DNA of 64,000 nucleotides from a virus. The translations under genes were made by a program, and so were the position numbers. The notes under the pieces were generated by a model. It searched no databases, was not told the DNA's origin, and worked only from the letters and a program-made list of their open reading frames with translations. Positions within the stretch are counted from its first letter, which is position 1. Each line of letters starts with the position of its first letter. Shown here piece after piece: positions 59,814 to 63,173 of this stretch. The stretch spans positions 32,529 to 96,528 of the IMG/VR virus record IMGVR_UViG_3300047409_000266. One strand, given 5' to 3'.

Positions 59814-62800
59814 GTGGCAGGACAACTGTGGTCAATTCCTGCTGAAGGTGGGTACATGTACTCGGACGAATTGTCCGATGTGCTCCGCCAGCAGGTGCAG
59901 CCGCTGACAAAAATGCGTCAGCTCTGCGATGCCGAGGATGGGACAAAGAAAGGTCTCAACCGCGGTGATAAATATAACTGGGACGTCTACAGCAATGTTG
60001 GCACCCAAGGTCGACGATTGGATGAATCGGCACCAATCCCAGAAACGGGATTTACGATCATTCAACACCAGCTTACGGTTAGTGATAGCCGCACTCAGAT
60101 TTACGTTTGAGTGAAACACTGGGTTAATTCGGGGAAACTCTCTCTGAGACAATCCCGAGCCAAGCCGTCGACGTAGTGAGAAATCACCAGGGCGACGGAA
60201 GGTGTAACGACTAGGCGGTGAGGAAACAATAATCCGCCCACGAACACCCAGGACATTACTGCCAGTGGTCTAAAAACGCCTTTCGCTTCCGACGGAGGTA
60301 AATGGAAGCGTCTCTGTAAATCCAACTCAACACGTTAGTTTTCTTGCCGCCGGACAATCGCCACAGCTTATTTTCTTGATGGGCTTTGGTGAGCATCATG
60401 CCGGTATGAGAGAAGATCGCCGCGCGCAAGCCGTCGATCAACATTTCGGTCCCAGAGAAGCAGAACGACTTCGCTTTAACACTGCCATCACCATCGAGAA
60501 GCCCGCGCATGTAATGTCGTTCTAGGTGCTTTGGCACCTTGGAGTATTGCAGCGTGTGGCTCTTTCTAGGTGTGACGCCATGTTTGATGATGTCGCGTAC
60601 TAGCTTCTGGCTTCCGAAATAGATGAACTTGTAGGGGCCCCGATTGGGGTACTTCGGGTCTATCTCTCTCTGAAAAATGCGAGCGTTTGATCCCATCGCC
60701 GACCGGATATCCCGGAGGATATGGACGTCCCTCGCTTGGAGCATGAGAACAACAGAGCGGCCAGCAGACGGTATGGTTCCGTCGGCCGCAAGGAACCCTA
60801 GAATATAAGCCTTCTGTTCGGTATCGATCTTCTCGAAGAAGCTTTCATCGAGAGTGTATCGCCGTCGCACGCGGCTTCTATAAATCTCGGATTCGTGGCG
60901 ACGAGTTCTGATGGTCTGCTCGGTGCAATCGAATTTTGCAGCGAGTTCACTATCCGAATAGCGCTCTGTGAGTTGGAGCAAGGCATTCCCTGACGGGATA
61001 TCGTAACTGTACGGCCGCTCCTTCTGGATAAGGCCGTATTCCAGTCCCCAAAGCCGAATGCTTGAACGGTTGCAGCCAATCACGGCGGCAGCATCAGAGA
61101 TTGAGTGCGTTGCTAACAATGAACGGAGATCGTTCTTTGTTGGTCGTTTATACGGTTTTCCTGTCATTACTGAACCGTAAACCATTGTTGTATAATGTCA
61201 AGAGATAGTCTGAGCAGCCGCGCGAGCGGTTGATGCCGTGGATAAAGAGCTGCGGCGGTAACATCCTGTTATGAAGCTGGCAATTCGGTTTTCTAAAGGG
61301 AGCCGAAGTAAAATCGCGTGAAACGGGGAAACTCTCCACAAGCGGAGACAATCCCGTAGGAAGCCGCAGCGGGCATTTTGATGCTGCGGAACCTCTAGAG
61401 ACTAGGCTGTGAGTCCCAACAATAATCAGCCCACGAGCGCGCGACGCGAAAGCGAAAAGATAGTCCCATCAGCACGGTGACGTGTTGAAAGCCACGGATA
61501 AAGAGCCGCGGCGAAGAAGAAATGTCCCTACACCGGCAAGCTTGTTGCGTTGGCGAAGCATCAAGTCGCCGCGATCATCGACAAGACGCTAAAGGACGAC
61601 GCACGCAAGTACTTTGACATTGAAGCATTCCTTCAATTCAAAAATACAGCCTTGCGCGCCGCACCTTCTGGCGGAACCTCTGCTACCGCGATCACGCTCG
61701 ACACTGGTGGAACCTCTACCGTGACGAACAACCTCGCGCTTGGCACTGGTCACATCAAGGCCATCGTCGATGCGATGAAAGAAAGGAACATCCCACCGTT
61801 TACGGCGGATGACTACGTTGGTGTTTCTCATCCTTCGACATGGCGAAATCTCAAGAACAGTCTCGAAACAATACATCAGTACACAGAGACTGGTCTCGCT
61901 TGTGATGGGCGCCTCGCCGCGTGAGCGGTGAGTGATAATCTCGCTAATTGCTGGAACCCGCTTAGAGCCGAACGGCCACAGCGTAGCTCGTAAGGGCAAG
62001 CGCGAAGGGTGAAAATCGTTCGGATTGCGCAATCAGCAGCCGAGCCGCTAGATCAGCGGAAGGTTCAACGACCAGGGCGGAAGCCCGTAGGGGATAAGCA
62101 TCCCCGAAACGCGAGATGGCTCGAAAGAGTCAGTGATATGGTCTACTCTGCGATTCGAAAGACGCAGCAGGAGAAAGAGAAATGCCGAGAGGATTAGATC
62201 GGCCGACGTGCAGTATTGAAGGCTGCGACCGTCCACACTTTGGGCACGGCATGTGTAGTCTACATTATCAGCGTTGGCGATCTACAGGCATCACGACCCA
62301 TGAGATTGATCGGAAAGCAAAGTTATCCGTTCGAGAAATTATGGTCGAGATGTTGCTCGATGGCATTAGAGAGTTGGATGATGGGTGCTGGATTTGCACG
62401 ACTGCCTATCCCGGTAAGAAGGGATATCATAGACTGCAAGTCCGGCGCGGCAACGTGGTTCATCGCGAGATGGCGCACCGCGTTAGTTTCGAGCATTTCA
62501 AAGGGCATCTTGGCCCACGTATGCTCGTATGTCATTCATGCGACTATCCTCCGTGTTGTAATCCTGCACACCTGTTCCAAGGTACGCACGCTCACAACAC
62601 TCAGGATATGGTGAGAAAGCAGAGAGGTTTGGTTGGCGAACTAAATATGAATGCGTTGCTTACCGAAGCCAAAGTGCTTTCCATATATCAGGACGAAGAT
62701 TTTGGACTGACTAGAGTGGCAATTGCCAAAAAACACGGCGTCAATCCAGAAACTATTTCTCACGTCCTGAGCGGTCGCAACTGGAAACATCTCTTTCTGC

Positions 62801-63173
62801 GGCACAGGCACAGCGACCCTGTGTGAATTAGTGGCACATCTTCAACGGCGAAATCGGAAGATATGAGTCCTGTCGTTTTGTCGAGCAGACCTTCATCCCG
62901 AAGGGCGGCGCGGCGGATGCGACAGCAGCCGGAACATACGATCCATGGGGTGGCATTGCTGACCCATGGAACAACGGATTGTCGTCATGGGCTTTCATAC
63001 TTGGCGGTGATACGGTCACAGAAGCAATCTGCGTCCCAGAGGAAATTAGAGCTAAGATTCCAGGCGATTTCGGCCGCTCTCGCGGCATTGCTTGGTATTA
63101 TCTCGGAGGTTTTGGTCTGGTGCACACTGACAGCCTGAATGCTAGGGTTGTCATGTGGGACAGCGCAGCGTAA
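59814..63173 (+). CDS. major capsid protein (N4-gp56-like), spliced: join(59814..60079,61269..61289,61525..61900,62835..63173), 333 aa
   Basis: GTG start with SD AAGGAG; exons total 1002 nt and read ...QLTV|YEAGNSV|PYTGKL...TETGLA|HIFNGEIGRYESCRFVEQT...DFGRSRGIAWYYLGGF. Confidence 0.88.
60080..61268 (+). ncRNA. group I intron 1 in MCP gene (IA-like, ORF in P8)
   Basis: U-G splice pair CGGT|TAGTGATAGCCG; P7 GACTA(60209)/TAGTC(61206); P8 GACATTA/TAATGTC; terminal G 61268. Confidence 0.85.
60256..61185 (-). CDS. intron-encoded two-motif LAGLIDADG homing endonuclease with N-terminal HTH repeats, antisense to the intron
   Basis: YILGFLAADG and YMRGLLDGDG; start may be ATG 61167. Confidence 0.85.
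   Translation of the reverse strand: MVYGSVMTGKPYKRPTKNDLRSLLATHSISDAAAVIGCNRSSIRLWGLEYGLIQKERPYSYDIPSGNALLQLTERYSDSELAAKFDCTEQTIRTRRHESEIYRSRVRRRYTLDESFFEKIDTEQKAYILGFLAADGTIPSAGRSVVLMLQARDVHILRDIRSAMGSNARIFQREIDPKYPNRGPYKFIYFGSQKLVRDIIKHGVTPRKSHTLQYSKVPKHLERHYMRGLLDGDGSVKAKSFCFSGTEMLIDGLRAAIFSHTGMMLTKAHQENKLWRLSGGKKTNVLSWIYRDASIYLRRKRKAFLDHWQ
61290..61524 (+). ncRNA. group I intron 2 in MCP gene (235 nt, no ORF)
   Basis: P1 TTCGGT|...GCCGAA; IGS AGGGA pairs with 3' exon TCCCT (P10); P7 GACTA(61400)/TAGTC(61461); terminal G 61524. Confidence 0.9.
61901..62834 (+). ncRNA. group I intron 3 in MCP gene (IA2-like, ORF 3' of the core)
   Basis: P1 CGCT|TGTGATGGGCG; P3 ATCTCGC/GCGAGAT; P/Q AATTGCTGG/AATCAGCAG; P7 GACCA(62070)/TGGTC(62139); terminal G 62834. 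Confidence 0.85.
62182..62826 (+). CDS. intron-encoded HNH homing endonuclease (Zn-binding)
   Basis: CxxxGC...GMCxxHYQR N-terminus; AHRVSF...VCHSCDYPPCCNPAHLxxGTxxxNxxDM; C-terminal HTH; SD AGGAG. Confidence 0.88.
   Translation: MPRGLDRPTCSIEGCDRPHFGHGMCSLHYQRWRSTGITTHEIDRKAKLSVREIMVEMLLDGIRELDDGCWICTTAYPGKKGYHRLQVRRGNVVHREMAHRVSFEHFKGHLGPRMLVCHSCDYPPCCNPAHLFQGTHAHNTQDMVRKQRGLVGELNMNALLTEAKVLSIYQDEDFGLTRVAIAKKHGVNPETISHVLSGRNWKHLFLRHRHSDPV

Follow-up and report, generated by a model that had tools for sequence, protein, structure and literature searches.

Among the closest described systems, the mycobacteriophage LittleE carries, in a group I intron of its major capsid gene, a bottom-strand LAGLIDADG-related open reading frame (ORF), gp14, and splicing of that intron was documented by reverse-transcription polymerase chain reaction (Pope et al., 2013, PMC3706429; JF937101). 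In the nuclear ribosomal DNA (rDNA) of Didymium iridis, the intron Dir.S956-2 encodes I-DirII antisense to its ribozyme and, in the accounts that cite the original work, from a promoter of its own (Johansen et al., 2006, cited in PMC3073962 and PMC3679873). The intron endonucleases of phage T4 provide a further comparison, with both hairpin control and autorepression known, and the T4 homing endonuclease gene segD is oriented against the flanking major capsid gene region, no promoter having been found for it (PMC2988022). Here we describe an element of this already known kind in the last 64 kilobases (kb) of a 96.5-kb IMG/VR phage record (IMGVR_UViG_3300047409_000266), a stretch hereafter called the window. 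The first of three group I introns in its major capsid gene contains, on the opposite strand, an endonuclease gene that occupies the whole loop of the ribozyme's P8 helix, with its stop codon in one helical arm and a promoter-like sequence overlapping the other. The explanation that we favor, at about even confidence, is a mobile capsid intron whose P8-filling antisense endonuclease would be expressed from its own sigma-70-type promoter as a leaderless mRNA.

The likeness to LittleE lies in the capsid group I intron and its antisense LAGLIDADG-related ORF; as in both LittleE and I-DirII, the window ORF resides inside the intron on the strand opposite the ribozyme. LittleE gp14, however, has 177 amino acids (aa), was described as I-CreI-like with an HNH-like tail, and has no detectable homology to the window endonuclease. 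It lies 3′ of P9, outside the Rfam core, rather than in P8 (core 1859-2062, ORF 2065-2598 of the LittleE locus, L302), and its ends, unlike those of the window gene, do not fall in a core helix; its promoter was not analyzed. I-DirII, as portrayed in the citing accounts, differs in being a eukaryotic His-Cys box enzyme with a Pol II promoter, a spliceosomal intron, a poly(A) tail, and an rRNA host gene. The T4 intron endonucleases resemble the present case in that phage group I introns contain private promoters, with hairpins and operators tuning expression, but their genes are sense, encode GIY-YIG or HNH enzymes, and use middle or late promoters, none overlapping a core helix, in early or middle host genes. 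The segD gene is free-standing rather than intronic and of the GIY-YIG type.

The enzyme family of the window gene (phrog_4645) is also represented by sense LAGLIDADG genes in introns of Staphylococcus K/Twort-like phages and Bacillus phage 0305phi8-36, at 26-34% identity, none with the paired-ends P8 layout of the window clade. Among distant relatives, a crude motif count places the J8/7 motif of the ribozyme on the endonuclease strand in about 50 loci versus 9; since J8/7 lies mostly on that strand, sense orientation appears to be normal outside the window clade. An earlier, sequence-only reading of this DNA had regarded two-motif LAGLIDADG enzymes as unusual in phage introns, a view now outdated given 164 phage records with LAGLIDADG relatives, several of them annotated as intron-encoded. 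Its implication that an antisense endonuclease with its own promoter is a rarity was likewise overstated, given the precedents of LittleE, I-DirII, and the T4 intron promoters.

The capsid gene, split by three group I introns, occupies 59814-63173 on the plus strand. Its parts around the intron in question are as follows (nt, nucleotides):

60080..61268, plus strand: group I intron 1, IA-like, with a P7.1-type hairpin, the guide GCCG, and a final G
59814..60079, plus strand: capsid exon 1, with a GTG start; it ends ...ACGGT, a U preceding the 5′ splice site, and the spliced product is colinear with intron-less capsids
61269..61289, plus strand: capsid exon 2, 21 nt

The junctions of intron 1 read ...ACGGT / intron ...CCTG / TTATG, and the GCCG guide can pair with exon CGGU. 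Excision is precise and restores the host frame: the spliced capsid reads ...HQLTV-YEAGNSV-PYTGKL..., colinear with the uninterrupted capsid genes of four related loci (L194, L196, L198, and L199). At the first two junctions the 5′ exons end in U and the introns in G. Rfam at gathering thresholds finds nothing in the window, and the introns emerge only with E-value thresholds, at which RF00028 matches all three (E 1.8e-5 to 1.7e-9), every one under the gathering score; intron 1 itself reaches 31.6 bits (E 1.8e-5) against a gathering score of 50. The antisense-gene introns of three relatives introduced below score 73.7 (L033), 59.8 (L197), and 50.7 bits (L113) with the same model. Intron 1 is a real group I intron in a phage major capsid gene.

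The sequence-only reading had placed the endonuclease ORF on the opposite strand inside the P8 loop, and its stop codon (60256-60258) in the P8 5′ strand GACATTA. Both placements are borne out, the first by the ORF coordinates, by the position that Rfam assigns to P8, and by the relatives. The helix and its surroundings comprise:

60252..60258, plus strand: P8 5′ arm, GACATTA, containing the complement of the endonuclease stop codon (60256-60258)
60260..60269, plus strand: 5′ arm of an extended P8, complementary to the final codons (D-H-W-Q), with 10 further pairs in the fold of the joined arms
61181..61192, plus strand: 3′ arm of the extended P8, which on the opposite strand is the spacer of the candidate promoter
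61193..61199, plus strand: P8 3′ arm, TAATGTC, which pairs with GACATTA
61200..61210, plus strand: J8/7 and the 3′ strand of P7, AAGAGATAGTC, matching the Rfam consensus AAGAUAUAGUC

The pairing of GACATTA with TAATGTC coincides with the position at which the Rfam group I model puts P8. TTA at 60256-60258, within GACATTA, reads on the opposite strand as the stop codon TAA, and in all seven loci compared (the window and six relatives) the P8 5′ arm holds the complement of the stop. Joined and folded, the two arms give a long P8 in which the bases immediately ahead of the ATG are paired to the final codons; both ends of the gene thus belong to the extended helix, a feature beyond what the sequence-only reading had described. 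The arms differ among the seven loci, and the helix is part of the minimum-free-energy fold in six of them; in L113, P8 has one mismatch and is absent from that fold. Double changes are evident: a U-A pair in the window is C-G in L033, L113, and L193, an A-U pair is U-A in L193, and the P8 helices of L197 and L114 are entirely different in sequence. In the extended P8, a G-C pair of the window is C-G in L033. Because the arm sequences vary between loci yet stay paired, P8 is real, and the endonuclease gene with its short leader makes up the whole P8 loop. Comparison of the P8 3′ arm with the 5′ arm for an asymmetry in conservation revealed no difference.

On the capsid pre-mRNA, the endonuclease gene would be untranslated loop sequence. 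Its two ends would pair, the complement of the stop and last codons serving as the 5′ arm and the region upstream of the ATG as the 3′ arm, and the long P8 would close off the 0.9-kb insert so that the ribozyme can fold and splice. Each plus-strand frame opposite the gene contains at least 10 stops (10-12), so that the capsid strand has no open frame there. The ORF is bracketed exactly by an 8-bp direct repeat, CATTACTG, at 60254-60261 and 61165-61172, one copy holding the stop codon and the other the start codon. Recombination between the two copies would excise the gene, and a short P8 hairpin would remain; in L033 the repeat has not been conserved.

The protein encoded in the loop combines the following features:

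60256..61167, minus strand: homing endonuclease gene, 303 aa plus stop (PF14528; phrog_4645)
60892..61137, minus strand: two N-terminal helix-turn-helix (HTH) units, with sub-threshold Pfam hits to HTH_28, HTH_23, and a MerR-type domain, and three-helix bundles in the predicted model
60772..60813, minus strand: LAGLIDADG motif 1, LGFLAADG, with D135 and G136 invariant
60478..60516, minus strand: LAGLIDADG motif 2, RGLLDGDG, with D233 and G234 invariant

Judged by profiles, invariant motifs, and predicted fold, which together uphold the earlier two-motif LAGLIDADG assignment, the ORF is a two-motif monomeric LAGLIDADG homing endonuclease with two N-terminal HTH units. PF14528 (LAGLIDADG_3) matches with 25.3 bits against a cutoff of 22.5, and phrog_4645 (endonuclease) with an E of 7.6e-47. 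Seventeen metagenomic homologs at 55-76% identity retain both motifs, with D135 and D233 invariant across all 18 sequences. The AlphaFold model, with a mean predicted local distance difference test (pLDDT) score of 81, adopts a pseudo-dimeric alpha-beta-beta-alpha-beta-beta-alpha fold, and its top Foldseek matches are the TliVMA intein endonuclease, I-Tsp061I, I-DmoI, I-SceI, and I-AniI (E 2e-7 to 1e-4). A profile built from the homolog alignment (A1) found no LAGLIDADG chain among the Protein Data Bank sequences; its sole match there is the 97-aa Cgl2762, over the N-terminal HTH region. A start at the in-frame ATG 61185 would lengthen the protein by 6 aa over the form starting at 61167, but this codon is probably not used: most homologs begin M-[STA]-G-K-P, and the upstream ATG of L033 is not in frame with its gene, so that 61167 is taken as the start. 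In the endonuclease of L197 (2970-3872, minus strand), the N-terminal HTH module is duplicated, producing four HTH-like units.

The comparison with relatives draws on several sources. The closest homologs, P0002-P0011 (59-76% identity), were compared through their protein N-termini. A single-protein scan of viral contigs yielded only relatives at 35% identity or less; L033, L034, L113, and L114 came from alignment-based scans, and the DNA of six further clade members was compared. The loci, with the insertion site (or nearest endonuclease) and the sequence ahead of the endonuclease ATG, are:

Window, the reference: capsid intron 1 site; TTGACA-16-TACGGT-6-ATG, no Shine-Dalgarno
L033, 58% protein identity: 10 nt downstream of the window intron 1 site; TTGACA-16-TACGGT-7-ATG, no Shine-Dalgarno
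L034, 55% protein identity: the site used in L033; TTGACA-17-TATCTG, followed by AGGAGG ahead of the ATG
L113 (= L195), 45% protein identity: near the capsid N-terminus; TTGAAA, with a weak GGGG ahead of the ATG
L193, hmmsearch E 8.5e-89 against the A1 profile: endonuclease closest to that of L113; TTGACT-16-TACACG, followed by GGAGG ahead of the ATG
L197, hmmsearch E 5.6e-87 against the A1 profile: precisely the window intron 2 site; TTCGCG, followed by AGGAG ahead of the ATG
L114, 43% protein identity: an unrelated capsid-like gene; TTCACT

Six related loci have the antisense gene in P8, and together with the window they represent at least four insertion sites in capsid genes. In L033, L113, L114, L193, and L197, a single opposite-strand Rfam group I match spans the endonuclease gene, three of these matches exceeding the gathering score, and the L034 gene is situated between two opposite-strand group I matches that partly cover it. 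The element is optional, because the endonuclease was not found in 77 of the 80 related capsid loci and the four nearest capsids scanned are intron-less. No homolog of the endonuclease was found in 29 prophage-like capsid loci of bacterial genomes, and each of five phage records has one copy. The closest capsid relatives in bacterial genomes (L273-L277) belong to Xanthobacteraceae metagenome-assembled genomes (91% and 73%), two Bradyrhizobium isolates (72% and 71%), and a Hyphomicrobium metagenome-assembled genome (70%), which makes an alphaproteobacterial host likely.

In different phages, three intron insertion points cluster in a 21-nt stretch of the same capsid codons (HQLTV-YEAGNSV-PY): 60079/60080 and 61289/61290 in the window, and the boundary between GCT and GGA of VYEA/GNSV in L033 and L034. 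The endonuclease-bearing intron of L197 occupies the exact site of the ORF-less intron 2 of the window. Some relatives exceed the window in intron number, as the capsid region of L034 (806-4176, minus strand) contains four separate Rfam group I matches. The other two introns of the window capsid gene are:

61290..61524, plus strand: group I intron 2, an ORF-less sibling of intron 1 (Rfam 37.8 bits)
61901-62834, plus strand: intron 3, exon 3 ending at 61900 rather than 61894, where intron-less homologs read TETGLA/HIFNGE

Set beside these, intron 1 has a chimeric appearance: P4-P6 (GGGGAAACTCTC...GAGACAATCCCG) is similar to that of intron 2, whereas its P3, P8, and endonuclease resemble the introns of L033, L034, and L113, whose own P4-P6 is like that of window intron 3. 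Because the parts of intron 1 resemble different introns, the endonuclease may have moved between intron backbones together with its P8 flanks.

If the gene is expressed, it would need a minus-strand promoter of its own, because no other minus-strand gene lies upstream of it; the neighboring genes are all on the plus strand. The candidate elements are:

61196..61201, minus strand: −35-like hexamer TTGACA, with GACA from P8 and TT from J8/7
61174..61179, minus strand: −10-like hexamer TACGGT, 6 nt before the ATG at 61167; identical in L033, 7 nt before its ATG

The string TTGACA (61201-61196), 16 nt, TACGGT (61179-61174), and ATG at 61167 is present just as the sequence-only reading had it. That reading took the entire TTGACA from the P8 3′ strand, which is right for GACA (61199-61196) but not for TT (61201-61200), the complement of AA in the conserved joiner J8/7. 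TTGACA matches the −35 consensus at six of six positions, and the 16-nt spacer lies within the expected 16-18 nt. A sigma-70-type site would thus have its −35 element at the J8/7-P8 junction and TACGGT as its −10-like element, and transcription would begin at or next to the A of ATG 61167, giving a leaderless mRNA. Alphaproteobacterial promoters rely mainly on a TTGAC −35 element, and leaderless mRNAs are common in these bacteria.

Several observations accord with such a promoter. TTGACA-16-TACGGT is identical in L033 despite only 58% protein identity, and the −35 position reads TTGACA in L034, TTGACT in L193, and TTGAAA in L113. All fetched loci together contain 57 distinct J8/7 contexts, and the joiner is preceded by TGTC in no locus other than the window, L033, and L034. 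In the homologs P0002, P0003, P0007, and P0015, N-terminal extensions of the form M-x-Y-G-x-x-M imply TAYGGN 6 nt before the ATG. The distance from J8/7 to the ATG is 32-33 nt in the window and L033, which have no Shine-Dalgarno sequence, and 48-58 nt in L034, L193, and L197, which have strong and properly spaced ones (AGGAGG, GGAGG, and AGGAG, respectively); in L113 it is 46 nt, with the weak GGGG only. This split fits a start site about 35 nt from the −35 element and is therefore consistent with a leaderless start in the window and L033. Shine-Dalgarno sequences are present at the other genes checked, capsid exon 1 and the HNH gene.

A second body of evidence weighs against promoter function. 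TACGGT agrees with TATAAT at three of six positions (T1, A2, and T6), below the four of six required of a −10 element, and for that reason a sigma-70 scan omits the site. In L034, L193, and L113 the −10 candidates do not end in T, and L197 (TTCGCG) and L114 (TTCACT) have no −35 element at the position at all. The pattern TTGACA-N16-18-TAnnnT occurs once on both strands of the 96.5-kb record, at this very site, with about 1.2 occurrences expected, so the count equals chance expectation, with no enrichment; the notable feature is the position, 6 nt before the only minus-strand gene in the block, rather than the pattern itself. J8/7 fixes the TT and P8 pairing fixes the GACA, and both P8 arms vary equally, so that no constraint beyond pairing is evident. 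The conserved spacer pairs with the conserved H-W-Q codons; TACGGTT forms with AACCGTA (codons 4-6) an inverted repeat around the ATG that is possibly kept as RNA structure; and the three TTGACA copies are each other's closest relatives. Conservation of TTGACA and the spacer can be explained largely by ribozyme constraints and shared ancestry. The hexamer TTGACA is rather scarce in the whole phage record (G000), with 33 copies on both strands versus about 47 expected.

The leaderless-promoter interpretation of the sequence-only reading accordingly fares unevenly. The Shine-Dalgarno and leader pattern and the lack of a better upstream candidate speak for it, and the weak −10 element and the missing −35 elements of L197 and L114 against it. 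Given the layout, we regard a promoter with a leaderless start as roughly a coin toss.

The alternative that survives best holds that TTGACA...TACGGT is no promoter and is conserved as ribozyme structure only (J8/7, P8, and the extended P8), the gene being either transcribed from some other weak minus-strand start or near-silent, as proposed for T4 segD. The compensatory changes in P8 and its extension fit this proposal, as do the retention of the layout in L197 and L114 without a −35 element, the weakness of the −10 element, and a genome-wide pattern count at expectation; segD, antisense beside a capsid gene and with no promoter found, offers a parallel. Yet the TACGGT block lies outside the P8 pairing, and the presence or absence of a Shine-Dalgarno sequence tracks the predicted start site. 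No better promoter candidate exists within 1.2 kb upstream, where TTGACA-TACGGT is the best sigma-70-like site on the minus strand, and there is no minus-strand gene upstream from which transcription could enter. In addition, clear purifying selection on the gene, combined with the optional presence of the intron in close relatives, implies an expressed, active nuclease. On this balance we consider a purely structural role unlikely, if still a serious contender.

Less probable again, and in our judgment distinctly so, is translational control by hairpins as in T4. Longer transcripts started upstream would fold TACGGTT with AACCGTA around the AUG, as well as with the P8 complement, and be poorly translated, so that only a transcript starting at the AUG would yield protein; the conserved TACGGT would then serve RNA structure besides, or in place of, a −10 function. 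The window does have the inverted repeat around its ATG, and L033 has a longer one, but the predicted hairpins are weak and vary from locus to locus, the repeat is left unpaired with its partner in the minimum-free-energy fold of the window, and an upstream promoter for the long transcript is not known.

An operator resembling the homing site, at the −10 region, is very improbable: the two extra HTH units of the protein, the precedent of the I-TevI operator, and an 8-nt TTACGGTT common to the −10 region (61172-61180, minus strand) and the exon 1/exon 2 junction that constitutes the homing site (60072-60079/61269) would favor it, but in the stretches compared chance alone would yield about 0.2 8-mer matches of this sort (about once in five comparisons), and TTACGGTT as an operator is not supported in L033, which keeps TTTACGGTT yet has TGACGGTG as its own homing site, with the insertion point 10 nt away.

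Under the favored explanation, a mobile intron with a privately transcribed, leaderless endonuclease gene, the nuclease would be made independently of late capsid transcription, and probably earlier. It would cut the intron-less capsid allele of co-infecting relatives near the ...TTACGGT/TTATGAAGCTGG... junction, and repair would then copy the intron into the cut allele. The early timing, like the control of splicing by antisense RNA that the sequence-only reading had also proposed, is pure inference.

The novelty lies in the P8-embedded antisense cassette in a clade of two-motif HTH-LAGLIDADG enzymes, with a possible promoter overlapping the ribozyme core. We tentatively envisage, at somewhat less than even confidence, a double use of the same DNA in a clade of phage capsid-gene introns, as J8/7 and P8 of the ribozyme and as the −35 element of a host-type promoter for the gene, with the partner arm containing its stop codon. 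The result would be a self-contained cassette closed by P8, giving, ahead of late capsid transcription, a leaderless mRNA that is later shut off by convergent capsid transcription or by double-stranded RNA. Cassette-like behavior is hinted at by the composition of intron 1, in which P3, P8, and an endonuclease like those of L033 are joined to a P4-P6 like that of the ORF-less intron 2.

All seven examples, and LittleE with them, are located in capsid genes. A sense endonuclease gene within a late, highly expressed structural gene would be made only late, and the ribosomes translating it would disturb folding of the ribozyme; a backwards gene with a private promoter would solve both problems. 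If the promoter is real, part of the ribozyme core doubles as a transcription signal, which would constrain the evolution of both. The clade also constitutes a natural set of enzymes at four or more insertion sites, three of them within 21 nt of one capsid gene, and may be useful for studying how homing endonucleases shift their specificity.

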